Assembly: GCA_965261385.1 (NCBI GenBank)
Contig: CBDHDB010000002.1
Span: forward strand, 2,813,096 to 2,877,095
Length of the DNA: 64,000 nt
Origin: Dehalococcoidia bacterium
GTDB taxonomy: Bacteria > Chloroflexota > Dehalococcoidia > Lucifugimonadales > Australimonadaceae
Reading direction: 5' to 3'
The notes beneath the pieces are model-generated. The model was not told where the DNA came from, made no database searches, and saw only the letters and a program-made list of their open reading frames with translations. A program made the position numbers and the translations under genes. Positions 60-64,000 of the stretch are shown here, piece after piece. Numbering within the stretch: position 1 is the first letter of the stretch; each line of letters begins with the position of its first letter.

Positions 60-2165
60 ATGCCCAAGACGCTCAAACCGATGTTTGCGCACTCGCTGGA
101 CGGGGCCTTCTCGTCGTCGGACTGGCTGTTCGAACCGAAACTGGACGGCTTCCGGGCGCTGGCGTTCCTCTCCGGCGATGAGAATGGTCGGAACGGGCGT
201 CTGCGGCTCCTCAGCAGGACCGGCAACGACCTCACCAAGAACTTCCCTGGCGTCGCCGAGGACTTGGCCGTCCTCCCCCACGACGAGATGATCATCGACG
301 GCGAAATCGTCGCGCTCAACGCCGAGGGGATGCCGGACTTCAACCTGCTGCAGAACAATTCGGGCATGAGGAGAATGCAGCTCCCCGAGGGACGCGATGA
401 GCCAGCGACCATCGCCTACTACCCATTCGACATCCTCTATCTGAATGGCCGCGACCTGCGGCAAGCGCCCCTCTACCAGAGGAAGCGGCTGCTGGCCCTG
501 GCGGTCGTGCCCAGCGACCGTATCCGCTCGGTGGAGTTCATTGAGGGCGAGGGCGAGGCGTTCTACCACATCGCGGAGCAGGTCGGCATCGAGGGCATCG
601 TCGCCAAGCGCCGCGACTCCCGGTACCAGGCGGGCGAGCGCTCGCGAAACTGGCTGAAGATCAAGCGCGTGCTCTCCCAAGAGTTCGTCGTCGCCGGGTA
701 CACGGCGGGTGAGGGAGAGCGGGCCAAGACGTTTGGCGCCGTCCTCCTTGGCTACTACGAGGATGGCGTACTCACCTACGCCGGACGTGCGGGCAGCGGG
801 TTCACCCAACAAACGCTCCTTGACACGCTGGAGGCGATGCAGCCGCTGCGCGTCGACGACTGCCCCTTCTCTGCCCCGCCGCCCGACGTCGACCCAAAGC
901 TCGCGACGTGGCTAAAGCCGGAGCTCGTAGCGCAGGTGAAGTTCTCCCAGTGGACCGCTGACTCGATCATGCGGGCGCCGGTCTTCCTTGGCCTGAGAGG
1001 AGATGTCCCGGCGCGAGCTGTCGTGCGCGAGTCGCCGGAGCCAGTCGCGTCGATAAAGACGATTGGCGCGTCGGCCGCTGAAACGACCGACCTTCGCTCC
1101 GAGTCAGCGGAGGCGCTCGAACAGCTCGCGCGGATCGCGAAGGACGGTCACGTCGAGGTCGGCGGGCAGAAGATTGCGGTCTCGAATCTCGACAAGGTCT
1201 TCTGGCCTGCGACCCGCGAGCGGAGCGCGGCCACCAAGGGCGAGATGCTCGCCTACTATGCGCGAGTCGCGCCCTACCTGCTGCCGCACCTGCGCGACCG
1301 CCCCCTCACCCTCACGCGCTACCCCAACGGCATCGACGGCCAGAGCTTCTACCAGAAGCGTTGGGAGCACGACCTGCCGCCGTTCGCCGAAACAGTGCGC
1401 CTCTTCTCGTCGGCGGCCGAGGGAGACGTCGACTACCTCGTCGTGAACAACTTGCCGACGCTTCTCTGGCTGGCGCAGCTCGCCGATCTGGAGCTGCACC
1501 CGTGGCTTTCTCGGACGACCGTCGAGCCGGACGCGGGGCGCCTAACCGAGAGCTTCACGGGTTCTAAGGAGGAGCTGCGCGAGAGCGTGCTCAACTACCC
1601 CGACTTCATCGTCTTCGACCTCGACCCGTACATCTACTCGGGCGAGGAAAAGGCAGGGGAAGAGCCGGAGCTGAACCGGCGGGCGTTCGCCAAGGGGGCG
1701 GAGGTCGCGCTCGCCCTGAAGGACCTGCTGGACCAGCTCTCCTTATCGTCGTTCCTCAAGACGTCGGGGAAGACGGGGCTGCACATCTATGTTCCCATCG
1801 TGCGGGAATACGACTACGGCGTGACGCGCAAAACGTGTGAGCTTATCGGCAAGTTCCTGCTGCGCCAGCGGCCGCTCGACGTGACGATGGAGTGGAGCGT
1901 TAGCAAGCGCTCCGGCAAGATATTCCTCGACTACAACATGAACGTGATGGAGAAGAACATGGCGTCGGTCTACTCGCTCCGCCCGCTGCCCGGCGCGCCG
2001 GTCTCCGTGCCCCTGCGCTGGGACGAGCTCGGCAGCGTCTACCCGAGCGACTTCAACATCGACTCCGTCCACGAGCGTCTGGCGGCGGTCGGCGACCTGT
2101 GGGGAGACATCCTGAAGGCCAAACATGACCTCCGGCGGCTGCTCGAAACGGCCATGAAGGAGTAG
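60..2165 (+). CDS. ligD: ATP-dependent DNA ligase LigD (ligase domain followed by primase-polymerase domain)
   Basis: 701-aa ORF. It has the ligase motif I KLDGFR near the N-terminus. The C-terminal half has the typical LigD polymerase signature (FWP..TKG..YY..PHLRDRPLTLTRYPNG..FYQK). The frame is open from nt 3 to the ATG, so the gene may extend upstream of the window (possible PE domain). Confidence 0.9.
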   Translation: MPKTLKPMFAHSLDGAFSSSDWLFEPKLDGFRALAFLSGDENGRNGRLRLLSRTGNDLTKNFPGVAEDLAVLPHDEMIIDGEIVALNAEGMPDFNLLQNNSGMRRMQLPEGRDEPATIAYYPFDILYLNGRDLRQAPLYQRKRLLALAVVPSDRIRSVEFIEGEGEAFYHIAEQVGIEGIVAKRRDSRYQAGERSRNWLKIKRVLSQEFVVAGYTAGEGERAKTFGAVLLGYYEDGVLTYAGRAGSGFTQQTLLDTLEAMQPLRVDDCPFSAPPPDVDPKLATWLKPELVAQVKFSQWTADSIMRAPVFLGLRGDVPARAVVRESPEPVASIKTIGASAAETTDLRSESAEALEQLARIAKDGHVEVGGQKIAVSNLDKVFWPATRERSAATKGEMLAYYARVAPYLLPHLRDRPLTLTRYPNGIDGQSFYQKRWEHDLPPFAETVRLFSSAAEGDVDYLVVNNLPTLLWLAQLADLELHPWLSRTTVEPDAGRLTESFTGSKEELRESVLNYPDFIVFDLDPYIYSGEEKAGEEPELNRRAFAKGAEVALALKDLLDQLSLSSFLKTSGKTGLHIYVPIVREYDYGVTRKTCELIGKFLLRQRPLDVTMEWSVSKRSGKIFLDYNMNVMEKNMASVYSLRPLPGAPVSVPLRWDELGSVYPSDFNIDSVHERLAAVGDLWGDILKAKHDLRRLLETAMKE

Positions 2166-2168
2166 ACG

Positions 2169-4397
2169 ATGCAGTCTTACCGTGTACTCGGGACGAGCGC
2201 GCCGCGCGTTGACGGCGCCGACAAGACAACGGGCGCTGCCCGCTATGCCTCCGACACCGACCTGCCCGGGACGTTATGGGCGAAGTCGCTGCGGAGCCCC
2301 TATCCGCATGCGCGGATCGTCCGCATCGACACGTCGAGGGCCGAGGGCCTCCCAGGCGTGCACGCTGTGCTGACAGGCGCCGACGTTGCGGGGGTCCTCT
2401 ACGGACGGCGGCTGCGGGACGTGCCGCCGCTCGCCCAGGAGCGCGTCCGGTTCGCCGGCGAGCGCGTAGCGGCCGTCGCGGCGGACGACGTGGAGACGGC
2501 GCAGCGAGCGGTCGAGCTCATCGAGGTCGAATACGAGGAGCTGCCGGCCGTCCTGGAGCCGGAAGACGCGCTGGCGGACGACGCGCCGCTGCTGCACCCG
2601 GACGTGCAGAGCTATGCCGGCCTGCCCACGCCCCTCCCGGCGCCCACCAACGCCTTCGTGAGCGATACGTGGGGGCGAGGCGATCCCGAGCGGGGGTTTG
2701 CCGAGGCCGACCTCATCGTCGAGGAAACGTACACGACACAGCGCGCGCATCAGGCGTACCTCGAACCACACTCGTGCGTCGTCTGGATCGATGGGGACGG
2801 GCGCGTGCAGATCTGGGCGTCCAACAAGGCGCCCCACCGCCTCAAGCTCAACTTGGTCGACGCCCTCGGCTTGGACCCGGCGGACATCGTGGTGCGCCAC
2901 TCAACAATAGGCGCGGACTTCGGCGGCAAGGGCTCGCCGATGGACATCCCCGTCTGCTACTTCCTGGCGAAGAAGACGGGAAGGCCGGTCAAGAGCGTAA
3001 TGACCTTCGCCGAGGAGTTCTCGGCAGCGAACCCGCGGCACCCCAGCGTCGTGCGGATGCGGACCGGAGTGAAGCGAGACGGAACGATCACGGCCCACGA
3101 GGCGCGGTTCCTCTTCAACAGCGGCGCCTACGGCGGATTCAAGCCCGTGCCCGGCGTCAACCTGCCTGGCGCGAGCCATGCCGCCGGGCCCTACCGCATA
3201 CCGCATACGCTCATCGAGGCCGTCCACGTCTACACCAACACGGTTCCCGGCGGCTTCTTCCGCGGGCCCGGGGCGGTGCAGGCCAACTTCGCGAGCGAGT
3301 CCCACATGGACGTCATCGCTTATCGCCTCGGCCTCGATCCGCTCACGTTTCGCCGGAAGAACCTCGTCCGCAGCGGCGAAGAGCTGGCCAACGGAATGCC
3401 GGGGCTGACGATGCGCCCGGAAGAGACGGTCGACGCTGCGGTGCGCGCATCCGGATACGGCGACCCCAAGCCGCCCAACGTTGGACGCGGCATATCCCTC
3501 GCCTACAAAGACCAAGGCGAGGGCGTGTCGTCGGCAGCCGTCACGTTCATGGCGGACGGCACGGTGCTGCTGAATACCTCGGTGTTCGAGCAGGGCACCG
3601 GCTCCTATACGGCCCTCGCCCAGATCGTCGGCGAGGCGCTCGGCCTGCCGCCCTCGGCCATCGAGGTCGAGGCGTGGGACTCGGACGACGGGCCATTCGA
3701 CACGGGCGTAGGCGCAAGCCGGGTGACGCGGGTCGCGGGGCCGGCGGCGTACGAGGCCGCCGGCATGGCCAAGGGCGAGCTGCTGAAGCTCGCAGCGGCG
3801 AGCCTCAGCTGGCCGGCGGACCGCGTCGCGTTGTCCGGCGACGACGTGGCGCGGACCGATACCGGAGAGTCGACGCCGTGGGCGGAGCTCGTGGCGCAAT
3901 CGGCGGCGCCTATCATGGGAAAGGCCACGAACAACGAGCACGAGCCCTCGCCGGTGGCTTCCGCGATGGTCCAGATTGCCGAAGTGCGGGTCGACCCGGA
4001 GACCGGGGCCGTCCAACTGCTGAAGCTGACGAGCGCCCACGATGTCGGCGTCGTCATCAACCCCATCGGCCACCAGGGGCAGATCAACGGCGGCGTCATC
4101 CAGGGCATGGGGAACGCGCTCACCGAGGAACTCCTGGTCGAGAATGGCCACGTCGTCAACCCCAGCTTTGCCGACTACAAGCTCCCGTCCATCGCCGACC
4201 TCCCGGAGATGCGGACGGCGCTCGTTGAGTCCGAGGAGGGCGTGGGCCCCTACCGCACGAAGGGCATCGGCGAGTACGCAATCGAGGGCGTAACCGCGGC
4301 GATCGCAAACGCAGTGGCCGACGCGATAGGCGTTCGCATCACCGACACGCCCGTGACAGCGGAGAAGGTCTACCGCGCGCTCCACCGGCAGGCCTAA
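2169..4397 (+). CDS. Xanthine dehydrogenase/aldehyde oxidase family molybdopterin-binding large subunit (orphan, no adjacent S/M subunits)
   Basis: 742-aa ORF starting 4 nt after the ligD stop. The N-terminus (RVDGADKTTGAARYASD) and overall layout are typical of CoxL/XdhA-type large subunits. Confidence 0.85.
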   Translation: MQSYRVLGTSAPRVDGADKTTGAARYASDTDLPGTLWAKSLRSPYPHARIVRIDTSRAEGLPGVHAVLTGADVAGVLYGRRLRDVPPLAQERVRFAGERVAAVAADDVETAQRAVELIEVEYEELPAVLEPEDALADDAPLLHPDVQSYAGLPTPLPAPTNAFVSDTWGRGDPERGFAEADLIVEETYTTQRAHQAYLEPHSCVVWIDGDGRVQIWASNKAPHRLKLNLVDALGLDPADIVVRHSTIGADFGGKGSPMDIPVCYFLAKKTGRPVKSVMTFAEEFSAANPRHPSVVRMRTGVKRDGTITAHEARFLFNSGAYGGFKPVPGVNLPGASHAAGPYRIPHTLIEAVHVYTNTVPGGFFRGPGAVQANFASESHMDVIAYRLGLDPLTFRRKNLVRSGEELANGMPGLTMRPEETVDAAVRASGYGDPKPPNVGRGISLAYKDQGEGVSSAAVTFMADGTVLLNTSVFEQGTGSYTALAQIVGEALGLPPSAIEVEAWDSDDGPFDTGVGASRVTRVAGPAAYEAAGMAKGELLKLAAASLSWPADRVALSGDDVARTDTGESTPWAELVAQSAAPIMGKATNNEHEPSPVASAMVQIAEVRVDPETGAVQLLKLTSAHDVGVVINPIGHQGQINGGVIQGMGNALTEELLVENGHVVNPSFADYKLPSIADLPEMRTALVESEEGVGPYRTKGIGEYAIEGVTAAIANAVADAIGVRITDTPVTAEKVYRALHRQA

Positions 4398-16689: not shown

Positions 16690-16860
16690 GCTGCGCCGGG
16701 GAAAGTGGGCTCCTCCCCCGCGCTTCGCTGCGCTTGCGCGTTCCCTCTCCCTTGCCCTCTCCCGCAGACGAGAGAGGGAACCTGAGACGGGAGGGGGAGG
16801 GGCTGCGAGGTTCCCGCCTGCGCGGGAATGACGGATGGGAGCGCGGGAATGACGGATGGG
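16690..16860 (+). repeat. Composite hairpin repeat element (core at 16807-16834)
   Basis: Contains ctctcccgcagacgagagaggg, then GAGGTTCCCGCCTGCGCGGGAATGACGG, then a partial second gcgggaatgacgg. Confidence 0.85.
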
Positions 16861-16870
16861 GATGGCGGGG

Positions 16871-18322
16871 TCATACATAGATCTGGAGGGAGGGGGGCTC
16901 CATGAAGGCGAGGGCCAGGGCGTCGGCGCGGTCGGGAGACTTGACGCCACGTTTGCGGAGGCTGGTCTTGCTCTCCAAACGGATGCGCCCGGTGCTCGAT
17001 ATGTCGTAGCGCAGGGCGAGGAGCTGGCTGGCCAGGATCGCGTCGTCCGGGATGTCGATGGCGTCCTCCCGGAGGAGGCGGGCGATCTCCCAGAAGATCT
17101 CGGCGCGCATGTCCACGAACTGGGAGGGGCGTTTCGCCTTCCCGCCAGCCTCCACGCCGATCACCGGGACGCCGAGGACGCCAAGCCTATCGACGACGCC
17201 ACCGCCGACCCCGTTCTCGTCCACGAACACGGCGGGCACGCGGAGGGCGTCCGCCCATGCCTTGACCTCGTCGGCCACCTGCATCGTGTCGAGGCCGCGC
17301 TTGAGGGGGATGAGATGTTCCACGCGAGAGCCGCGGCGGATGCAGATGACGGACTCGGCGTCGCCGAACCGGGCGACGTCGACGCCCATGCGGTAGGGGT
17401 GGTTGAGGTAGTCGCGGTCTATCTCTCCCGCTGGGAGGGGGGAGGGCTGCGAGGTTCCCGCCTGCGCGGGAATGACGGATGGGAACGCGGGGGTGACGGA
17501 TGGGGACGCGGCCATGTCGGAAGGGGAAGAGAGGGGGACGGGGTCGCCGCGCCAGCGGGCGACGGCGCGGTCGACATGGTGGCGCGTGGTGAGAGAGTCT
17601 TCGAGGGCGTCGGGGAAGCGGCCGAGCACCGAGGCGATGTACAGCGGCGAGTCTTCTCCCCAGTCGCGGCGGCGGCGCTCCACGTCCTCGGGGTTGACCA
17701 GGCCAGGGATGTGGAAACGCTTGCGGCGGAAGTTGGGCGAGTCCAGGGCGGAGATCGCTATCCGGTGGTAGAGGGCGGACTTGGAGTGGAAGGACTCGTA
17801 CAGCTCGCCCTCGTGGGAGAGCGGGTTGCCGAGGAGGAGCGCCTTCTTGGGGTTCAGGCGCTTGAGGGCTTCGAAGTAGGGCTGCTTGACGCCTTGGGCC
17901 TCCGTGACGACGACGAGCAGGTTCGGCGAGTGGAACCCTTGCAGGTTGTGCTGGGAGTTGGAGCAGAAGGCGATGGCGAACCGGTCGTCGTCGATGACGT
18001 ACTTGTCCGCGGTCAGCTTGCCGGGCAGGCGTCCGTTGGCCGCGGCGAGGGCGACGCCGAGCTCGTGCCAGAGTATCTCTTTCACCTGGCGAGCTGTCGG
18101 GCCGGTGACGACGGCTTTGGCGTGGGGCCGGGTGTGGAGCCACCAGAGGACGGCGCGGGCGGCGGCCCAGTCCTTGCCCGATGAGTTGGCGGCCACGACG
18201 GAGACGGCAGTGTAGCGGGCGAGGGCGTCGAGGATGGCTTCCTGCTTGTCGTAGGGCTTGCCGGCGTCCTGGAGGACCTCTTTGACGAATCGGGCGGGGT
18301 GGTTCTTGTATTGGGCGAGCAT
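16871..18322 (-). CDS. phage terminase large subunit-like protein (solitary), carrying an in-frame repeat insertion
   Basis: Walker A-like AANSSGKD and Walker B-like LLVVVTEA. RNaseH-like nuclease motifs MGVDVARFGD and SPDRADAL. The ATG at 18322 is preceded by GAGGAAGG. Confidence 0.75.
   Translation of the reverse strand: MLAQYKNHPARFVKEVLQDAGKPYDKQEAILDALARYTAVSVVAANSSGKDWAAARAVLWWLHTRPHAKAVVTGPTARQVKEILWHELGVALAAANGRLPGKLTADKYVIDDDRFAIAFCSNSQHNLQGFHSPNLLVVVTEAQGVKQPYFEALKRLNPKKALLLGNPLSHEGELYESFHSKSALYHRIAISALDSPNFRRKRFHIPGLVNPEDVERRRRDWGEDSPLYIASVLGRFPDALEDSLTTRHHVDRAVARWRGDPVPLSSPSDMAASPSVTPAFPSVIPAQAGTSQPSPLPAGEIDRDYLNHPYRMGVDVARFGDAESVICIRRGSRVEHLIPLKRGLDTMQVADEVKAWADALRVPAVFVDENGVGGGVVDRLGVLGVPVIGVEAGGKAKRPSQFVDMRAEIFWEIARLLREDAIDIPDDAILASQLLALRYDISSTGRIRLESKTSLRKRGVKSPDRADALALAFMEPPSLQIYV
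17423..17515 (+). repeat. Composite hairpin repeat inside the terminase-like CDS (core 17451-17478)
   Basis: Same core as the intergenic copies. It is translated on the minus strand as ...PSVIPAQAGTSQPSPLPAGE... with no stop codon. Confidence 0.85.
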
Positions 18323-18479
18323 GAGCCTTCCTCGACACATAAGGGCCGAGCGGCTCGTCCGCTCTTACTGGGGTGGGGTGTTGCGTCCCATTGTGACGGT
18401 TTCATGACATTTGGTAAATGGGCAGTTGTCACAAGGGGCCTAGGGGGCGCGTGGATTGGCAGGCAGACGCGCAGACCCT

Positions 18480-18741: not shown

Positions 18742-20016
18742 CTACGCGAACGGCTTCTCTATGACTTCGTAATCTCCAAGGAACTTGTATGGAGGTATTC
18801 CTTCAACGATGTCTACTTCGCCGTTTGAATACTCTGCATGGGTGATGGACTTGGTCCATCCCGGCAAAGGCTTGTCGGTGTATGGGTTTGAGTAGAATTC
18901 TGCTTTTGCTCTTGTTATCGTCCAAGGATACAGGTCGGAAAACGCTATCACTCCCATGACATGTCGATTCTGAGGCCCTGAGTTGTTGGCCCAAAATCCG
19001 TCGTTCCTTCGGCTAGAGAAGGGACTTTGAAACGTTTCAGCGTTTGCTAGGTGTACGTACGAACTAGACCCTAGTCTACCCAACAGCGCTTCGTCCAGGC
19101 GGTCATCGGTACGGTCACGACGCATGGCGATTATCATGTTTTCCGCGATCTTGTGATGTCGCGCCTTTTCATAGAGCCGAGTCTTCGTCCTGCCTATGTC
19201 GTCGACGGGACTTACTCTAGACGGATATCGCCATATAAACCTTCCAGCTCTTGGACGGTTCTCTGGTAGAACCGGAATCAGCCGACTCATCAGTGTCCAG
19301 TTCCCATGATGAAATGAGCTTGTCGCGAGCAGGTTGGGATTTTGACCACAAAGCATGTAAGAGCGAAGCTAGTCGTTATAGTCCGTCTCCCTTATCAGTT
19401 CTTCGAAGTGGCATTTCAGTTGCTGTTTGGTAGGGAGTGATTCCAATTTCCCTTGGGTTTCGAGGTGCAAGACAAAGTCAGGCAAAGAAATCTCATTCAG
19501 GGTGTCCCAAACCGACAGTTCTAGTTGGTCCCTTTCCAAGGCGGTGCCACTTTCCAAATCGATGTTGGTGGCTTCAACTACGTAAATGAATTGAGTTCCA
19601 TCTTGGACGTTCACCTGAACTCTAAAATCTAGTAGGTGGCTCCTAAGAGAAGGTTGGGCCTCCACCGGATCGCCTGTACCATTCAAGAATTCATGCAAAA
19701 ACAGCTCAAAGAATGCAGCATAAAAGGCCTTGTCATTTATTCTTGATCCAGGTCCTTTGTGGCGCATGGGGCCTACAAGCATGCGCTGGTGCTCGGACGG
19801 GAATCGGTCGACCCAACGCTGAAGCATAGACCGCACTCGTTCATATTCAGGGAGCGAAGAACGATCGAGAAAAGCGTAGACTGACTCAACGCTGCGCGAT
19901 GGTTCGATGTAGTCCCTGGGTTTGTCGTCGAATAGTCGGACTATGAGATTTCTCCAAATGACAAAGGCGCTTGTACTCCGCTCCCGCCAGCACTCCCACG
20001 ATAGTTCTACAAGCCG
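18742..20016 (-). pseudogene. Decayed low-GC gene of unknown function (in-frame TAG at 19369-19371, no start codon for the upstream 60 codons)
   Basis: ORFs 19369..19836 and 18742..19356 are in the same frame, separated by a single TAG. The frame stays open upstream to 20016 without an ATG, GTG or TTG. GC content is clearly lower than in the flanks. Confidence 0.45.
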
Positions 20017-20099: not shown

Positions 20100-20815
20100 C
20101 GACCGGTTGCGGGCGAACGCTTTTCCTCCCCCGAGCGTCGCTGCGCTGGCGCGTCCCCTCTCGCAGACGGGCGGGGTTTCCTGGATTCCCGTTTTCGCGG
20201 GAACGACGGGTGGGGGGAGGGGTGCTGACGGCGGGCGAACGTTTCTCCCTCACCCGCGCTGCGCGCGACCTCTCCCGCTGGGAGAGGTGAGGGGCTGCGA
20301 GGTTCCCGCCTGCGCGGGAATGACGGGAGGGCGCCGGGATGACGGAGGGGCGCGGGAGGGGAGGCTGCGAGGTTCCCGCCTTCGCGGGAATGACGGGTTG
20401 GGTTTGGGGTGACGGGGGTAGTTGCGGGCGGGGCGTTCTCCTTCCCCGCGCTTCGTTGCGCTGGCGCGTCCCCTCCCGCAGACGGGCGGGGGGTTCCTGG
20501 GTTCCCGCTTTCGCGGGAATCTCTCACGTTGGCCTATCGGCCAACACCACAACCGACGAAAATAGGGGCTGGAGGACGGAGCGAGGGATCGCGGTGCTGT
20601 CGCCCCGCTACGAGGTTCCCGCCTGCGCGGGAATGACGGAAGGGGGCGTGGGTGGCGGGGGTTAGTTGCGGGCGAACGCTTCTCCTCCCCCGCGTTTCGC
20701 TGCGCTGGCGCCTCCCCTCCCGCAGACGGGCGGGGAGGGCTGCGAGGTTCCCGCCTGCGCGGGAATGACGGAAAGGGCGCGGGAATGACGGAAAGGGCGC
20801 GGGAAATGACGGGAG
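20100..20815 (+). repeat. Dense cluster of six composite hairpin-repeat units
   Basis: Cores at 20183 (variant), 20299, 20369, 20499 (truncated), 20612 and 20744, plus extra gcgggaatgacgg partial copies. The modules between cores are themselves repeated elsewhere in the window. Confidence 0.9.
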
Positions 20816-24235: not shown

Positions 24236-24310
24236 GGATCCGGGGGCGAGGTTCCCGCCTGCGCGGGAATGACGGGAGAGAGCGAGAATGACGGGGCGAG
24301 CGGGGATAGC
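24236..24310 (+). repeat. Composite hairpin repeat (core 24248-24275)
   Basis: Exact core GAGGTTCCCGCCTGCGCGGGAATGACGG followed by a partial gagaatgacgg. Confidence 0.85.
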
Positions 24311-24399
24311 GGGAAGGTTGCGGGCGTGACGGGCGGGGCTTGCGGGGGACGGCTTGGGCTCCTTATACTCAATCGCACAACAGAAGACCGCGACCGACC

Positions 24400-24507
24400 T
24401 TTAAATCCAGTCCTGTGAGGCTGGCAAGGCAGGGACCGGGGCCGTGGATGTTCGCGTCCAGGGCCTGATTACGAGACCTCTTTGCCAGCGGCTGAGAGGT
24501 TTTTTTC
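24400..24507 (+). promoter_or_regulatory. PyrR-binding leader/attenuator of the pyr operon
   Basis: aaAUCCAGuccugugAGGCUgg resembles the PyrR binding loop. It is followed by the hairpin acctct...agaggt and a T7 run that abuts the pyrR TTG start. The GAGAGG RBS lies within the 3' arm of the hairpin. Confidence 0.6.
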
Positions 24508-25059
24508 TTGCCCGACGAGCGCCAGATACTGACAAGCGACGACATGCGGCGCGTGATTAGCCGCATCGCTCACGAGATCGTCGAGCGCAATCACGGCGCC
24601 GCCGACCTGCTGCTCGTCGGGCTCCAGCGTCGCGGAGTGCCGCTGGCGAACCGCATCGCCGCCGCCATCGCCACCTTCGAGGGCGCCGACGTTCCGGTCG
24701 GATCGCTCGACATCAATCTCTACCGGGACGACCTCACGAGCCGTCCCCAGCCCTTGGTGAGGCCGACGGAGTTCCCCGTCGGCGTGGACGGCAAGATCGT
24801 CGTCCTGGTGGATGACGTCTTCTACACGGGCCGCACCGTGCGGGCCGCCCTCAACGCGCTGATGGACCTGGGCAGGCCGCGTGCGGTCCAGCTGGCCGTC
24901 ATGGTCGATCGGGGCCACCACGAACTGCCCATCCGGGCCGACTACGTGGGCAAGAACGTGCCCACGAGCCTGAACGAAGAAATACAGGTACGTGTCGCCG
25001 AGTTCGACGCCACTGAAGAGGTGGCGCTGGTCAGGCACGACCGGCGGGTGCTGTCATGA
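24508..25059 (+). CDS. pyrR: bifunctional pyr operon regulator/uracil phosphoribosyltransferase PyrR
   Basis: 183 aa with the PRPP-binding motif [13 protein letters not shown]. It is the first gene of the pyr operon. Confidence 0.9.
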
Positions 25060-25114
25060 CGACGAACGCTCCGCCCCCCTCCTCAATCCTCCCCCGGACG
25101 GAGAGGGAGGACAG

Positions 25115-26251
25115 ATGAACCCTCCTCTGCATGAGGGACACGTGCAAGGGGAAGGGGGACAGACGAACCAGCGGCGCAAGCACATCCTCGACCTCGACGA
25201 CTTTTCGCGCGAGGAGATTGTGGGCGTGCTCGACCTCGCCGAGGCGATGCGCGAGCTGCTGGGGCGCAGCATCAAGAAGGCGCCGTCGCTGCGGGGGAAG
25301 GTCGTCATCACGGTGTTCCTCGAACCGAGCACGCGGACGCGGGTCTCGTTCGAGCAGGCGGGGAAGATGCTCAGCGCGGACGTCATCAACGTTAGCGGGT
25401 CGGGCAGCAGCGCGGAGAAGGGCGAGTCGCTCCTCAACACGGCGCTCACGCTCCAGGCGATGCGCGCGGACCTCATCGTCATTCGCAGCCCGCACTCGGG
25501 CGCGCCCTACTTCCTCGCCAGGAATCTCGAACGCGCGGGCGTCGTGAATGCAGGCGACGGCCGCCACGCCCACCCGACGCAGGCGCTCCTCGACCTAATG
25601 ACGATGCGGCATCACATGGGCGACCTCGACGGCAAGAAGGTCGTACTCGTGGGCGACTCGCTGCACAGCCGCGTCGCGCGGTCGGACATCTTCGGACTGA
25701 CCGCAATGGGCGCTTCGGTCGTGCTCTCCGGGCCTCCAACGATGATTCCGCTCGACCTGCTCAAGGGCGGCCCCCTCCCGGCCTCCCCCGCAGACGGGGG
25801 AGGAGATCAGAAGGGGCCGCGAGGTTCCCGCCTTCGCGGGAATGACGGCGGCGGCGGGAATGACGGAGGAACCCGCGGGAATGACGGGGGCGGCAGGAAT
25901 GACGGAGGAGCCCCTGGCCTCACGGTCGAGCCTGACCTCGACGCCGCGATAGAGGACGCCGACGCGGTCATCGCCTTGCGCGTCCAGAAGGAGCGTCAAG
26001 AGGCAGGGATGCTGCCGAGCATGCGCGAATACACGCGCCGCTGGATGATTTCGGAGGCCAGGCTCCGCCGGGCCAAGCCGGGGGCGCTGCTCATGCACCC
26101 GGGCCCGATGAACGAGGGCGTCGAGATTGCGTCCTCCTTGGCGCACGGGCCCGGCGCGCAAATCGAGGAGCAGGTCACGAACGGCGTGGCGATTCGGATG
26201 GCGCTGCTTTACCAACTACTCACCGGCGCGCAAGAAGAGGCTTCCGAGTGA
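25115..26251 (+). CDS. pyrB: aspartate carbamoyltransferase catalytic subunit with a roughly 52-codon repeat-derived insertion
   Basis: Motifs STRTR, HPTQ and LRVQKERQ. The ATG at 25115 is preceded by GAGGGAGG. The longer ORF from 24992 overlaps pyrR and is unlikely to be real. Confidence 0.9.
   Translation: MNPPLHEGHVQGEGGQTNQRRKHILDLDDFSREEIVGVLDLAEAMRELLGRSIKKAPSLRGKVVITVFLEPSTRTRVSFEQAGKMLSADVINVSGSGSSAEKGESLLNTALTLQAMRADLIVIRSPHSGAPYFLARNLERAGVVNAGDGRHAHPTQALLDLMTMRHHMGDLDGKKVVLVGDSLHSRVARSDIFGLTAMGASVVLSGPPTMIPLDLLKGGPLPASPADGGGDQKGPRGSRLRGNDGGGGNDGGTRGNDGGGRNDGGAPGLTVEPDLDAAIEDADAVIALRVQKERQEAGMLPSMREYTRRWMISEARLRRAKPGALLMHPGPMNEGVEIASSLAHGPGAQIEEQVTNGVAIRMALLYQLLTGAQEEASE
25765..25920 (+). 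repeat. Composite hairpin repeat inserted in frame in pyrB (core 25821-25848 plus three gggaatgacgg partial copies)
   Basis: cctcccccgcagacgggggagg plus GAGGTTCCCGCCTTCGCGGGAATGACGG, translated as ...PADGGGDQKGPRGSRLRGNDGGGGNDGGTRGNDGGGRNDGG... Confidence 0.85.
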
Positions 26252-45215: not shown

Positions 45216-45262
45216 CAGCGAGATTCCCGCCTGCGCGGGAATGACGGAGTGCCCGTGCCCTC
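45216..45262 (+). repeat. Hairpin repeat (core 45220-45247) between the two DLH paralogs
   Basis: GAGATTCCCGCCTGCGCGGGAATGACGG. Confidence 0.85.
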
Positions 45263-49924: not shown

Positions 49925-50395
49925 CCCTGCCCCTCCCCTCCGTCATTGCCTCGAAAATAGACGCCCACGCCCCCTCCGTCATTCCCGCGCAGGCGGGAAC
50001 CTCGTAGCGGGGCGACAGCACCGCGATCCCTCCCCGCGCCCCAACCGTCTTCCCACGCCCCAACCGTCATTCCCGCGAAAGCGGGAATCCAGGTATCGGC
50101 GTCCGCTCGCCTATTTTCCTTGGTTGTGGTGTTGGACGAGGCCAACATAGGGGATTGCCTCGAAAATAGACGCCCACGCTCCCCTCCCGTCATTCCCGCG
50201 CAGGCGGGAACCTCGCAGCGGCGCGACAGCGGCGCGGTCCATCCCCCTCTTCCCGTCTGCTCCGGTTCTCCCCACCGTCTGCGGGGGAGAGCTAGAGAGG
50301 GGGCCGCCCCACTCGCCACTTTCGTCCGTTGTGGTGTGGAGCGTTGGCCCGTCTGCGGGGGAGAGCTAGAGAGGGGGCCGCCCCGCCAACCAGGT
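49925..50395 (-). repeat. Second cluster of composite hairpin repeats, inverted orientation
   Basis: Cores at 49976-50003, 50064-50090 and 50187-50214 (ccgtcattcccgcgcaggcgggaacctc), plus cccgtctgcggggg hairpins at about 50255 and 50350. Confidence 0.9.
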
Positions 50396-50399
50396 TCCC

Positions 50400-50765
50400 G
50401 GGGAGTTCAACTACCAAATTCTGAACAGTTGCCTGCGACGCCTGCCCATTGCCCAACCCCATTGATATTTCTACAATGAAGTGTCGGATTATCGTCATGT
50501 CTAGGACCACGAATCCCCCAACCACTTACGCCGGACTGTTCCCTGCCGCCCCCGTCTGCGGGAGAGACTACGAGGGGGCTGGAGCGCACGAAATACAAAT
50601 TTTCGGTCAGATAGTAGTTCCGCGACCCAGGAAGCAGGCCACGGCCATGAAAACAACCTCTGTCAACCCCCAAATGTCATCGATTTTCGGATACTTTTTT
50701 ACTCGTAATCTCCCCGAAAAATCGAGTACTTCCCACTCGTAACCTCCCCGATAGATTCGGGGACT
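50400..50765 (-). other. AT-richer conserved non-coding element (copy B), inverted paralog of 38446-38740
   Basis: See copy A. Contains two direct tcggggagRttacgagt units 34 nt apart, read on the minus strand. Confidence 0.35.
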
Positions 50766-50854: not shown

Positions 50855-51814
50855 ATGTCAGACTCAGTGAGCATCCAGGTCCCGGCGACGACGGCCAACC
50901 TTGGCCCAGGCTTCGATTGCCTGGGCATGGCGCTGTCAATGTGGAACACGATGCGTGTCGGCTGGTCGGAACGCCCGTATCTGGAGATTCACGGCTCGGG
51001 CGAGGGGCGTCTGTCGCTCGATGAGCGAAACCTGATGTACCGCTCGGCCCAGCGAGTCCTCGACGAGACAGGCAACAGCCGCCGGAGCCTGTCGATCGAG
51101 AGCTGGCAGGAGATACCGCTCAGCCGCGGACTCGGGAGCAGCTCGGCGGCAATCGTCGGCGGGCTGTACGGGGCGAACGCGCTCCTCGATCACCCGATCG
51201 ACCCGCATGGGCTGCTGCAACTCGCGGCCCAGATCGAGGGGCATCCCGACAATGTCGCGCCGGCGCTGATGGGCGGGTTGAGCATCGCCATCGCGGACGG
51301 GGACACCGTCCACGCCGCGCCCGTTCCGCTGCCCGCCAACCTTCAATGCGTGGCGTACATACCCGACACGCCGATGGCGACGAAGCAGGCGCGGAGCGTG
51401 CTCGAACCGCAACCGGCGCGGACCGACGCGGTGTTCAACGTGGGGCGCGCCGCGCTGCTCGTGGCGAGCCTCGCGCTGGATAGGCCGGAGTACCTGCGTC
51501 TCGCGACGCAGGACCGGCTGCACCAGCCCCAACGGCAGAAGGTATATCGTCAGATGAAGGTCATCTTCGACCACGCGTTGGCGGCGGGCGCGCGCGGCGT
51601 GTTTCTATCCGGCGCGGGCTCGTCAATCGTCGCGTTCACGACGCGGGAGGAGAACCGCGCGTTCACCATCGGTTACGAGATGGCGGACGCCGGGGACAAG
51701 TCAGGGCTGACGGGCACGTTCCGCGTGCTCGAACCCGCAACGACGGGCGCCGGCCCCGTTGACCAAGTCCCGGACTCTGCCGTTCCTCCTCCCCCGTCTG
51801 CGGGGGAGGACTGA
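50855..51814 (+). CDS. thrB: homoserine kinase
   Basis: GHMP kinase motifs PATTANLGPGFD and RGLGSSSAA. The last roughly 8 codons and the stop lie inside a hairpin repeat. Confidence 0.9.
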   Translation: MSDSVSIQVPATTANLGPGFDCLGMALSMWNTMRVGWSERPYLEIHGSGEGRLSLDERNLMYRSAQRVLDETGNSRRSLSIESWQEIPLSRGLGSSSAAIVGGLYGANALLDHPIDPHGLLQLAAQIEGHPDNVAPALMGGLSIAIADGDTVHAAPVPLPANLQCVAYIPDTPMATKQARSVLEPQPARTDAVFNVGRAALLVASLALDRPEYLRLATQDRLHQPQRQKVYRQMKVIFDHALAAGARGVFLSGAGSSIVAFTTREENRAFTIGYEMADAGDKSGLTGTFRVLEPATTGAGPVDQVPDSAVPPPPSAGED

Positions 51815-51830
51815 GGAGGGGGGCCGCTTG

Positions 51831-55904: not shown

Positions 55905-55950
55905 CCCACCCCCGTCACTCCCGCGCAGGCGGGAACCTCGCCCCCTCTCT
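55905..55950 (-). repeat. Hairpin repeat (core 55912-55939)
   Basis: ccgtcactcccgcgcaggcgggaacctc. Confidence 0.8.
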
Positions 55951-58094: not shown

Positions 58095-58215
58095 TCTCCC
58101 CTACCCTTCCGTCGTTCCCGCGCCCTCCCGCCCGACTCTCCGTCATTCCAGCGCAGGCGGGCACCTCGCAGCGACGCGACAGCAGCGCGGTCCCTCCTCC
58201 CCCGGTCTGCGACGC
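58095..58215 (-). repeat. Degenerate composite hairpin repeat (core 58140-58167)
   Basis: ccgtcattccagcgcaggcgggcacctc, plus a partial ccgtcgttcccgcgcc and the ggaccgcgctgctgtcgcg module. Confidence 0.75.
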
Positions 58216-60455: not shown

Positions 60456-61253
60456 ATGCAGGCAGTAATCCTCGCAGCGGGACAGGGCACGAGACTCCGT
60501 CCATTCACCAACGAATGCCCCAAACCCCTGGTGAGCGTTCAGGGTAAGCCCATGCTGTACTACCAGCTCGAGGCGCTCGACGGGGCGGGCGTTCGGGAGT
60601 GCGTGATCGTCGTAGGCTGCTGCGCCGACCTGGTCCGCGAGACCATCGGCGCCCGGTTCGGCAACGTCGCCATCTCCTACGTTGAGAACGACATATACGA
60701 CCGGACGAACAACATCTACTCGCTCTGGCTGGCGCGGCGAAGCATCGTTGACGACATCCTGTTGCTCGAGGGCGATCTCGTCTTCGAGCCCGGCCTGCTG
60801 CTTGACCTGCTCGACGCGCCCTATGACAACGTCGCCGTGGTTGACCGCTACGACTCCACCATGAACGGGACGGTCATCCAAGCGGCTGGCGACCTGGCAA
60901 CCGCCATGGTGCTCAAGGCGGACCAGCCCCCCGATTTCGACTACGGCTCCGCGCTCAAGACGGTCAACATCTACAAACTCTCGGGTAGGGCGGTGCGCTG
61001 GCAGGTGATGCCGTACCTCGATGAGTACATCGCGCGGGGCCAGACTAGCCACTATTACGAGATAGCCTTCGCACGCGCCATTGCCGACGGCTCGTTGCGC
61101 ATGCACGTGCTCGGCACGGGCCCACGGTGGTGGACGGAGATCGACAACGTCGATGATCTACGCCACGCCCAGACCATGTCGCTGCTGCCCACCCATCGCC
61201 CGCGCTCCGGGCTGACAGCACAGCGCGGCCCAGTAGGGAGGATCGTGCGATGA
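60456..61253 (+). CDS. LicC-like sugar/phospho-alcohol nucleotidyl(cytidylyl)transferase
   Basis: AVILAAGQGTRLRP..PKPLV, and NNIYSLWLA, which is typical of the LicC/phosphocholine cytidylyltransferase group. Confidence 0.8.
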   Translation: MQAVILAAGQGTRLRPFTNECPKPLVSVQGKPMLYYQLEALDGAGVRECVIVVGCCADLVRETIGARFGNVAISYVENDIYDRTNNIYSLWLARRSIVDDILLLEGDLVFEPGLLLDLLDAPYDNVAVVDRYDSTMNGTVIQAAGDLATAMVLKADQPPDFDYGSALKTVNIYKLSGRAVRWQVMPYLDEYIARGQTSHYYEIAFARAIADGSLRMHVLGTGPRWWTEIDNVDDLRHAQTMSLLPTHRPRSGLTAQRGPVGRIVR

Positions 61254-61990
61254 CTGAGCGCGACGCCGCCGGAAGGGCGGAGATTGACCAGCTGATAAGG
61301 ACCATCCCGCCCATGGACGTCACGGTGGCGGCGGAACTCCTCCGGGAGGCGAAGGAGGTCTTCGACGAGCAAGGAGGGGTGTTCTTCCTGAGGCAGGGGA
61401 CCTGCCTTGGAGCCGTCCGCGACGGCGCCTTCATTACTTGGGACGACGATATCGACCTCGGCTCCATCTACGGGATGCACGGCCTAACCAAGCGGTCGGT
61501 CGCGTCGGTGGCCGACGCCTTCAGGGCTCGCGGATTCCACGTCGAGACGGCAACGTACGGCGGCGAGTCGTGGCTCGGGGTCATGAAGCGCCACATACGG
61601 ATCGACTGGCTTTGCTACCGCGTCCGCAAGGGCCACATCGTCCACTTCCCGAACGTGTCGATTCCGGCGGAGCTGTTCACCCGCCTCGAAGAGATCGACT
61701 TCGTCGGCGAGAGGTTTCTGGTACCGAGTCCGCCTGAAGAGTACCTCCGCTGCAAGTACGGACCGCACTGGGCGACGCCCAAGCGCATCGGTTACGAGAA
61801 GGACGTCGTCGATAACCTCCCGGCTGAGCAGCCTGCTTGGCCTCGGCTCCTCTGGCGGTTCCTCGCGGCCCGTCTTGCGGGCAGAACGGCTGTGCTTCAA
61901 TATGGGAAATCCTGGTCTTACAGCCTATGGGCCTGCAACTTTGCCCACCAAGCCTTGGCCCGGGACTCCGGGCTGCCCATGGGCGCGTAG
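61250..61990 (+). CDS. LicD family phosphotransferase
   Basis: LRQGTCLGAVRDGAFITWDDDIDLG is the LicD signature. Confidence 0.8.
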   Translation: MTERDAAGRAEIDQLIRTIPPMDVTVAAELLREAKEVFDEQGGVFFLRQGTCLGAVRDGAFITWDDDIDLGSIYGMHGLTKRSVASVADAFRARGFHVETATYGGESWLGVMKRHIRIDWLCYRVRKGHIVHFPNVSIPAELFTRLEEIDFVGERFLVPSPPEEYLRCKYGPHWATPKRIGYEKDVVDNLPAEQPAWPRLLWRFLAARLAGRTAVLQYGKSWSYSLWACNFAHQALARDSGLPMGA

Positions 61991-63624: not shown

Positions 63625-63634
63625 GAGGAGCGCG

Positions 63635-64000
63635 ATGAGTGAGTGCGACGCCGCCGGGAGTGCGGAGATGGACCAGCTGATGAGGACCACCCCGCCGATG
63701 GACGCCACCGTGGCAGCGGAGCTCCTCCGGGAGGCAAAGGAGGTCTTCGACGAGCTGGGGGTTGTGTTCTTCCTGAGGCAGGGGACCTGCCTCGGGGCGG
63801 TTCGCGATGGCGCCTTCATCCCTTGGGACGACGATATCGACCTCGGCTCCATCTACGGGATGCACGGCCTAACCAAGCGGTCGGTCGCGTCGGTGGCCGA
63901 CGCCTTCAGGGCTCGCGGATTCCACGTCGAGACGGCAACGTACGGCGGCGAGTCGTGGCTCGGCATCATGAAACGCCACATAAAGATCGACTGGTTCTGC
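63635..64000 (+). CDS. second LicD family phosphotransferase (partial, runs off the window)
   Basis: The ATG is preceded by TAGGAGGAG. Paralog of 61250-61990, with a 141-nt tract (63823-63963) identical to 61438-61578. Confidence 0.8.
   Translation, partial: MSECDAAGSAEMDQLMRTTPPMDATVAAELLREAKEVFDELGVVFFLRQGTCLGAVRDGAFIPWDDDIDLGSIYGMHGLTKRSVASVADAFRARGFHVETATYGGESWLGIMKRHIKIDWFC

Follow-up and report, generated by a model that had tools for sequence, protein, structure and literature searches.

An in-frame REP element of the CGTC-1 type in the predicted hinge of an orphan terminase-like protein from Dehalococcoidia

We analyzed a 64,000-nucleotide stretch (hereafter the window) of the genome of a Dehalococcoidia bacterium (phylum Chloroflexota; contig CBDHDB010000002.1, positions 2,813,096 to 2,877,095), in which a gene for a protein resembling the large subunit of phage terminases (TerL) carries a copy of a short dispersed repeat. 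In its sequence features the repeat matches the repetitive extragenic palindromic (REP) family known as CGTC-1, dRS3, or RPE-6. The reading that we favor, to which we assign a probability of roughly 0.8, is that this REP copy, together with a tail of half-REP units and a second hairpin module, lies in frame in the hinge between the two domains of the protein as a near-neutral selfish passenger that is filtered by selection.

The composite insert spans 17421..17515, with the element on the plus strand; the minus strand encodes residues 276-306 of the terminase-like protein (MAASPSVTPAFPSVIPAQAGTSQPSPLPAGE). Across 17515..17423 the minus-strand open reading frame (ORF) reads ...SSPSDMAASPSVTPAFPSVIPAQAGTSQPSPLPAGEID..., and the predicted product across the insert includes ...SVIPAQAGTSQPSPLPAGEIDR. 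The insert peptide (~31 residues) is in frame, uncharged, rich in Pro, Ser, and Ala, and predicted to be disordered. The REP core (17454..17477, plus strand) has two stem arms, GTTCCCGC and GCGGGAAT, which form an 8-bp stem of seven Watson-Crick pairs and one G.T pair around a 4-nt loop (CTGC). The GACG that follows (17474-17477) adjoins the stem and is the CGTC tag when read on the minus strand (...CCGTCATTCCCGCGCAGGCGGGAAC...). The predicted energy of the hairpin is -12.6 to -12.9 kcal/mol on either strand, and -12.6 kcal/mol on the mRNA strand. Neither terminal inverted repeats (15-30 bp) in the 93-nt insert, which has internal hairpins only, nor a target-site duplication at its borders, in alignments with orthologues, could be seen.

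Two further modules accompany the core. The first is a pair of 21-nt tandem half-REP units (GCGGGAATGACGGATGGGAAC and GCGGGGGTGACGGATGGGGAC; 17466..17507, plus strand), translated as SPSVTPA and FPSVIPA. Each such unit has the form GCGGGAATGAC plus 6-10 nt, that is, the 3' stem arm, the CGTC tag, and 6-10 nt. Comparable tails stand behind the window copies at 16809, 20746, and 25823 and in other phyla; tandem units behind REP cores were seen at 16809-16862, 17466-17507, 20746-20800, and 25835-25905 of the window, and at four loci from very different taxa (L015, L049, L052, and L114). The tails suggest that nicking or slippage has occurred repeatedly at the CGTC tag; they find no mention in those parts of the literature on this REP family that were available to us. 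The second module is a short hairpin (CTCTCCCGCTGGGAGGGGGGAG; 17423..17444, plus strand) of a co-occurring repeat family, which also precedes the copies at 20305, 20750, and 25827. Repeats of this CTCCCGCAGACGGG[A/G]G type share mosaics with the REP at 17423-17444, 20152-20181, 20467-20496, 25779-25808, 50272-50578, and 51791-51820.

The 20-nt window core, GTTCCCGCCTGCGCGGGAAT, is identical at 19/20 positions to ATTCCCgcCTgcgcGGGAAT, the dRS3/Nf1 consensus of Neisseria (PMC3046118), and it matches at 19/20 positions the Neisseria REPIN seed ATTCCCGCGCAGGCGGGAATC, which Bertels and Rainey paired with a Group 2 RAYT (bioRxiv 10.1101/2021.07.10.451892). Di Nocera, De Gregorio & Rocco (2013, BMC Genomics 14:522, PMC3733652) describe CGTC-tagged REPs as short hairpins with CGTC at one side, stems of 8-9 bp, and loops of 4-5 nt (their Table 1); the same paper equates CGTC-1 with dRS3 of Neisseria and RPE-6 of Rickettsia conorii and reports intragenic in-frame copies. 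The tag, stem, loop, and consensus of the window element all agree with these descriptions, and on sequence grounds it is a CGTC-1/dRS3/RPE-6 REP, a published identity that the original prediction missed. The in-frame peptides given in Additional file 3 of that paper are VIPAKAGI, SFPRKRES, CHSRESGNP, DSRFRGND, and WIPAFTGMT for R. conorii; VVPAKAGT for Erythrobacter litoralis; and GSRLRGND, RYSRAGGNP, and VIPACAGMT for Coxiella burnetii. Translations of the window core equal the C. burnetii copies (GSRLRGND in full, and VIPACAGMT over seven shared residues). The published peptides correspond to the five open frames of the prediction, so that neither the element nor its occurrence in frame within genes is new.

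Within the window, the 28-nt core GGTTCCCGCCTGCGCGGGAATGACGGAT (17453-17480) has 13 matches at ≤3 mismatches, compared with 0 in 100 shuffles, and a 20-nt degenerate core has 17 matches, compared with 0.08 expected. With 13-17 copies in 64 kb and about zero expected, this is a genuine repeat family rather than a chance likeness, and the claim that a dispersed repeat lies in frame within the terminase-like gene is borne out. Thirteen of the 15 window copies found at ≤3 mismatches to a 22-mer are extragenic. Eleven copies between 16.8 and 45.2 kb (the terminase copy, the copy in pyrB described below, and nine others) have the '+' orientation on the chromosome, and five copies between 50 and 58 kb have the '-' orientation. 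An extragenic sister copy (16789..16862, plus strand), directly past the stop codon of the terminase-like gene, is more similar to the in-gene copy than any other in the window: 69/74 positions are identical between 17433-17506 and 16789-16862, and the next-best window copy reaches 52/74. Homology with the orthologous loci stops at this stop codon.

The gene that carries the insert lies on the minus strand (16871..18340) as an ORF of 489 aa; because homologues begin at MLAQYKN, its true start is probably at 18322, which would give a protein of 483 aa. The ORF matched PHROG_2 'terminase large subunit' in a profile search (E 2e-35), and annotated phage terminases matched in tblastn with ~30% identity over 97% of its length (best E 1e-38). 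Pfam scores were below cut-off (Terminase_6N, 17.1 versus 22 bits; Terminase_6C, 14.4 versus 22.6 bits, at residues 318-389). An AlphaFold2 model built on 90 homologues had a mean predicted local distance difference test (pLDDT) score of 86.4. In a Foldseek search, the model matched the large terminases Sf6 gp2 (a TerL; E 3.5e-18), HK97, T4 gp17, and D6E, and the two domains were each matched separately. The predicted N-terminal ATPase domain (residues 1-264; 17549..18340, minus strand) was assigned from the secondary structure and pLDDT of the model, from Foldseek matches to the P74-26 and T4 TerL ATPase domains, and from the sub-threshold Terminase_6N match. The predicted C-terminal RNase-H-like nuclease domain (residues 310-489; 16871..17413, minus strand) was assigned from the model, from Foldseek matches to the E217, G20c, and Sf6 TerL nuclease domains (template modeling score ~0.7), and from the sub-threshold Terminase_6C match.

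Several observations bear on whether this gene is intact. The catalytic residues are present and invariant in the 90 homologues: GK (55-56, Walker-type), TE (146-147, Walker B region), and the nuclease aspartates D321, D374, D470, and D473. Two orthologues from independent assemblies (L001 and L002; 95-97% amino-acid identity, synonymous divergence [dS] 0.26-0.29) gave ratios of nonsynonymous to synonymous divergence (dN/dS) of 0.106 and 0.063, respectively. The GC content at third codon positions (GC3) of the coding frame is ~0.9 (0.89) on either side of the insert. Because dN/dS is 0.06-0.13, the catalytic residues are invariant, and GC3 is ~0.9 in both flanks, we conclude from these patterns of sequence conservation that the gene is not a pseudogene but is under purifying selection and functional.

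The original prediction placed the insert in the inter-domain linker, with the ATPase half on one side and the nuclease half on the other; the AlphaFold2 model, the Foldseek matches, and homologues with short hinges agree in this. The only internal segment of the model with pLDDT <50 is residues 273-303. The insert-free hinge is 13-18 aa long in homologues at 54-58% identity, compared with 56 aa in the window gene. Because the low-confidence stretch coincides with the insert and distant homologues have a short, insert-free hinge, the inter-domain placement appears correct, and in the model the insert sits in the hinge between the two domains.

A second gene in the window also carries the repeat in frame. 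pyrB, encoding aspartate carbamoyltransferase (24992..26251, plus strand), has Pfam matches to OTCace_N at 63-206 and to OTCace at 310-408 (profile positions 59-156), which flank the insert. The mosaic (25779..25905, plus strand; translated ...GSRLRGNDGGGGNDGGTRGNDGGGRNDGG...) consists of one core and three 'GND' tail units, adds ~47 residues, and splits the Pfam match of the Asp/Orn-binding domain. The motif occurs in nine of the 120 listed pyrB homologues (P0121-P0128 and P0145); eight that were aligned, from a close clade (P0121-P0128), have one to three cores in the same loop, and more distant orthologues have none. pyrB lies between a PyrR-binding leader (24394-24509, plus strand; Rfam RF00515, 54.9 bits) with pyrR, and dihydroorotase, the leader being upstream of pyrR-pyrB-pyrC; an extragenic REP (24250-24277) stands just ahead of the leader. 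pyrB belongs to core pyrimidine biosynthesis. Its in-frame REP shows that a core biosynthetic gene tolerates the repeat too. Relative to the coding strand, the pyrB copy (a '+' gene) and the terminase copy (a '-' gene) are in opposite orientations, as had been predicted; on the chromosome, both copies are '+', so that the statement does not hold there.

The prediction had gone on to suggest that the core would be unusually well tolerated inside coding DNA. Its six-frame translations are correct (GSRLRGNDG, EVPACAGMT, PSFPRRREP, VIPAQAGTS, and RHSRAGGNL are open, and one frame carries a TGA): five frames of the 28-nt core are open and frame +2 holds the TGA, with two TGA in that frame over 93 nt. 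This is, however, the level expected by chance. Random 28-mers drawn from the window, whose GC content is 66%, average 5.13 open frames, with five or more in 80% of cases; 25% of random 93-nt window segments reach at least five; and the shuffled element gives the same values. The open frames are thus attributable to a GC content of 66-73% and are not a feature of the element.

We also took a census of copies inside and outside genes. A copy was called as lying in a coding frame if the frame was open for 240 nt on both sides and GC3 > GC1 > GC2 held on both sides; in the window, this criterion selects exactly the terminase-like gene and pyrB. The sample comprised 293 copies from GC-rich loci fetched by pattern alone, with terminase-fetched loci excluded. 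Of these, 288 were extragenic and only 5/293 (1.7%) were in a coding frame: the window supplied two, a Sphaerotilus contig one, and a Sphingomonas contig a doublet. This indicates that the family is strongly extragenic and avoids genes rather than tolerating them. The proposed test of whether the stop-containing frame is underrepresented among intragenic copies is nearly circular because an intact gene cannot carry that frame, and a sample with five intragenic copies is too small for a comparison of frames. The converse possibility, that genes carrying the repeat are generally pseudogenes, does not describe the hosts in the window, given the dN/dS of 0.06-0.13 of the terminase-like gene and the identity of the other host, pyrB.

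The core is widely distributed. Exact matches to the 24-mer GGTTCCCGCCTGCGCGGGAATGAC occur in species-representative genomes, in at least 115 stretches (L003-L117), and in metagenomes, in at least 120 stretches (L121-L240); among the matches listed are Alpha-, Beta-, and Gammaproteobacteria, Planctomycetota, Dehalococcoidia, Bacteroidota, Nitrospirales, Rhodothermales, one cyanobacterium, and one candidate-phylum bacterium. In Proteobacteria and Planctomycetota, it usually forms an inverted doublet with a 15-30-nt spacer, and outside Chloroflexota such doublets are its main form. For a REP, this identity across phyla is striking. A 29-mer with the Chloroflexi-type flank had 0 matches in metagenome contigs. 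In other Dehalococcoidia, the REP has the form TTCCTGC...GCAGGAA rather than TTCCCGC...GCGGGAA (L118 5586-8692; L119 6788 and 7396; L120 12732), and because this change in the stem is compensatory, it is the hairpin that is conserved and not merely the sequence.

Relatives of the terminase-like protein show how variable the hinge is. The peptide motif [VI][IV]PA[QE]AG[TI] occurs at about residues 260-310 in 36 of the 120 best homologues, an enrichment that may be slightly inflated because the repeat peptide is itself among the shared words by which the homologue search selects its candidates. Of 37 motif occurrences in hinges, 29 use frame -1. In an alignment of 90 sequences, the hinge measures 13-144 residues and 29 members have a recognizable REP motif; across the wider set of relatives the hinge reaches ~300 aa, and the maximum number of in-gene copies is 11, in a protein of 748 aa (P0088). 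Presence of the REP is scattered over the family tree, requiring at least 16 changes by parsimony, and one whole clade has a 13-18-aa hinge with no repeat. Other repeats also occupy this site: in orthologues, the second-hairpin repeat is translated in the hinge as ...PVLSPVRGGELERG..., and the hinges of two homologues (P0063 and P0099) include ...CHSERSAAEPRACPEPAEGN..., which resembles a translated copy of yet another dispersed repeat family.

The contig that encodes P0088 (L118) allowed in-gene and extragenic arrays to be compared at one DNA locus. The in-gene spacings of the 11 copies are 69, 69, 54, 72, 54, 54, 54, 162, 54, and 54 nt. All ten are multiples of three, compared with 2/13 in the flanking extragenic arrays, and the frame through the array is therefore kept by selection. 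The in-gene copies carry the genome's own TTCCTGC...GCAGGAA variant, like the flanking extragenic copies, which favors recent gain or homogenization over ancient inheritance. Among near-identical orthologues of the window gene, the hinge varies in units of whole modules: L002 carries two cores, whereas the linker of L001 is filled by a module of the second-hairpin type and lacks the core. The central 45 nt of the window in-gene copy are identical in L002 despite a dS of 0.26 for the gene. Together, the local 69/74 identity, the genome-specific variant, the module differences, and the identical 45 nt favor recent local copying or ongoing gene conversion among REPs over a single old insertion passed down by descent.

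These observations fit the following scenario. The source of the hinge copy would be the neighboring REP downstream of the stop codon, or else a master copy from which both descend. The route may have been transposition of single-stranded hairpins by IS200/IS605-type Y1 (RAYT) enzymes, the mode of mobilization proposed for this family. Alternatively, neighboring hairpins may have exchanged sequence by template switching or gene conversion, which would explain the local similarity equally well. Once a first copy was in the hinge, further copies could be gained and lost by slippage or recombination. Selection would purge versions that shift the frame, place the TGA in frame, or disturb the fold, leaving in place only those copies that are in frame and in a permissive linker. 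For the protein, the consequence would be neutral or nearly so, the repeat being selfish DNA in a tolerant loop with no adaptation of its own to coding DNA.

Several points weigh against this account. Translation through the insert is deduced from conservation of the frame. Neither a motif search nor tblastn found a RAYT or Y1 gene in the 64-kb window, and motif scans and tblastn of ~240 REP-bearing loci found only two Y1-like ORFs, both kilobases from REPs. According to Di Nocera et al. (PMC3733652), CGTC REPs have no dedicated transposase; the matter is disputed, a Group 2 RAYT being proposed in bioRxiv 10.1101/2021.07.10.451892. Comparison of two syntenic loci, L119 with the REP and L120 without it, revealed neither a clean empty site nor a target duplication; the REP-free orthologue L120 has unrelated sequence at the REP position, and because it offers no clean empty site, the insertion event itself is an inference. 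Neutrality is put in question by the ~30% of the terminase family that carry the repeat, compared with the 1.7% of copies that are intragenic overall. The bias toward frame -1 (29/37), the enrichment in the hinge, and the identical 45 nt could reflect targeting, selection on the peptide or RNA, or local amplification with gene conversion. Of the two Y1-like ORFs, one (L104 7399-7998) matches PF01797 (E 6e-10) and the other (L226 9039-9524) has stop codons inside.

A bolder extension holds that in Dehalococcoidia the terminase hinge is a preferred site for REP landing and expansion, with arrays of up to 11 in-frame copies and ~300 aa, almost always in one orientation and frame, and that the host exploits these as a length-variable disordered tether or a contingency switch in a gene that often stands beside a defense-type slot (AbiU, LmuB-like). 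We regard this as doubtful; if it were true, REP elements would build protein sequence at a scale beyond the published cases. A related explanation, which we think slightly less probable still, is that the hinge repeats are functional, either as a length-variable tether that tunes the coupling of ATPase and nuclease, as an mRNA hairpin that pauses translation between the domains, or as a contingency locus. The share of homologues with the hinge motif (36/120, compared with 1.7% of copies intragenic in general), the retention of up to 11 copies in frame, the preference for the uncharged frame in 29/37 occurrences, the conservation of the REP core beyond the synonymous divergence of the gene, and the stable mRNA-strand hairpin (-12.6 kcal/mol) speak for a function. 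Yet a repeat-free hinge of 13-18 aa suffices for many family members, a whole clade among them; module content varies freely among near-identical orthologues; and the same repeat occurs in pyrB, in a loop with no relation to the hinge, and, in other bacteria, in many unrelated proteins. Moreover, the frame bias and enrichment can stem from local tandem amplification of one seeded copy, and the conservation of the core from gene conversion with extragenic copies.

It is also improbable, and more so than a function, that the recurrence reflects insertion bias rather than tolerance, with the hinge DNA or a resident REP serving as the preferred target of a mobilizing enzyme. The repeat recurs in this hinge across many lineages (at least 16 changes on the tree), and the in-gene and flanking arrays have one orientation. 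REPs and dRS3 are, moreover, documented insertion targets (PMC3046118, PMC3733652); in Neisseria, a filamentous prophage integrates at dRS3 copies. On the other side, the hinge borders show no conserved target motif, the sequence at this position in the REP-free orthologue is unrelated, no transposase could be linked to the REPs in the window or in the ~240 loci, and copying from a neighboring array explains the orientation bias equally well. Finally, one could take the gene for a pseudogene in decay, or for two fused ORFs, in which the frame stays open across the repeat by accident owing to the high GC content. This idea can draw on the many frames that GC-rich DNA holds open by chance, on a frame opposite the gene that is open for 442 codons, and on the sub-threshold Pfam terminase models, but it is effectively refuted by the dN/dS of 0.06-0.13, the GC3 of 0.89 on both sides of the insert, the catalytic residues invariant in 90 homologues, the confident two-domain model, and the ten L118 spacings that are all multiples of three, which is no accident.

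No portal, capsid, or small-terminase gene is annotated near the terminase-like gene in the window or in five related loci. A prophage context was rejected because no packaging module was found near the gene in the window or in these loci (L001, L002, and L118-L120), and for the same reason we label the protein TerL-like and orphan. Its neighbors in the window are F420-dependent oxidoreductases and low-GC ORFs with no assigned function; in the related loci, its flanks are housekeeping, IS21, AbiU, or LmuB-like genes, and in L119 and L120, it is syntenic between housekeeping genes. There are several paralogues per genome, and some members have an N-terminal helix-turn-helix domain (PF01381). 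Directly upstream of the gene is a variable slot (18742-19836 of the window, minus strand), which in the window holds two low-GC (0.55) ORFs without a Pfam or PADLOC match, in L001 an AbiU/AIPR gene (1714-3399), and in L120 an LmuB-like ATPase gene (2147-4228). This slot may be a small defense-gene hotspot. A role of the terminase-like protein or of the two adjoining low-GC ORFs as a defense system was considered and rejected, as PADLOC gave no match.

The remaining window copies of the REP are singlets with tandem half-REP tails within mosaics of other short hairpin repeats, or direct arrays; no inverted REP pair was found within 130 bp anywhere in the window. An extragenic mosaic cluster (20281..20799, plus strand) has at least four REP cores (20301, 20371, 20614, and 20746) among other repeats, with no GC3-supported frame through it. 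Single extragenic copies lie at 24250..24277 (plus strand; the copy ahead of the PyrR leader), at 45222..45249 (plus strand) between two '+' genes, at 55910..55937 (minus strand) between convergent genes, and at 58138..58165 (minus strand), and a cluster of three extragenic copies (49974, 50066, and 50185) occupies 49974..50212 on the minus strand. A CRISPR-like array was considered, the core being shaped like a type I-E repeat, and was ruled out by irregular spacings (70, 129, 114, and 132 nt) and by 'spacers' that are themselves repeats. A search of the whole window at Rfam gathering thresholds returned the PyrR leader only and no known RNA family for the REP. Elsewhere in the window, a 300-nt direct repeat, 92% identical, occurs at 61247-61546 and 63632-63931, 2.4 kb apart.

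These results extend the survival of in-frame REP and Rickettsia palindromic elements in working genes to a new phylum and a new host protein, with up to eleven translated copies, as predicted from the frame, in a single hinge of relatives. They also correct the notion of a repeat with a special adaptation to coding sequence, because its open frames are those of any sequence of such GC content. For annotation, VIPAQAGT, SRLRGND, HSRAGGN, and PACAGMT in GC-rich genomes should be read as translated REP DNA and not as protein motifs, and differences in hinge length among orthologues can be repeat driven. Measured against the portions of the published record at hand, the new elements are the Dehalococcoidia host, the orphan terminase-like host protein, and in-gene arrays of ~300 aa.

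Among known systems, the window element is closest to the CGTC-1 REPs, which are likewise high in copy number, mostly extragenic, and occasionally in frame, with peptides of the forms VIPA(K/Q)AG(I/T), SRLRGND, HSR(A/E)(G/S)GN, PA(C/F)AGMT, and SFPR(K/R)RE. It differs in its host, a member of the Dehalococcoidia (Chloroflexota), which falls outside the five phyla given for CGTC repeats in PMC3733652. Whereas the copies described there are mainly head-to-head dimers, those in the window are singlets with half-REP tails in mosaics; the same source describes the CGTC copies of Neisseria and Wolbachia as clustered rather than dimeric, and the head-to-head dimer is a feature of family organization and not of the individual unit. 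The in-gene arrays of relatives, with up to 11 copies and ~300 aa, exceed the maximum of 43-82 aa found in those published accounts.

The Rickettsia palindromic elements (Ogata et al., cited in PMC3733652) are similar in being palindromic repeats that lie in frame in functional host genes, typically in surface loops or linkers. The terminase insert shares their hallmarks of an in-frame copy at a permissive site: the frame is kept, dN/dS is 0.06-0.13, the segment is predicted to be disordered, and distant homologues lack it. The classical RPE-1, an element of an obligate intracellular bacterium, is longer (~100-150 bp). By this description it differs from the short REP hairpin and tail found here in a free-living, GC-rich Chloroflexota genome. 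The REPIN-RAYT system (Bertels & Rainey) uses the same REP sequence, and in other phyla the exact 24-mer forms REPIN-type inverted doublets; in contrast, the in-gene copy is a singlet, and the window has neither an inverted doublet within 130 bp nor a RAYT gene. The host protein shares with phage TerL (Sf6 gp2, HK97, and T4 gp17) a predicted two-domain fold of ATPase and RNase-H-like nuclease and ~30% identity, but here it is encoded by a chromosomal orphan gene with several paralogues per genome and no packaging neighbors. Lastly, the terminase hinge resembles the Neisserial intergenic mosaic elements (NIMEs) and the BIMEs of E. coli, in which REP or dRS3 sequences are interleaved with short repeats; those mosaics are intergenic, whereas the mosaic described here lies in frame within a gene.

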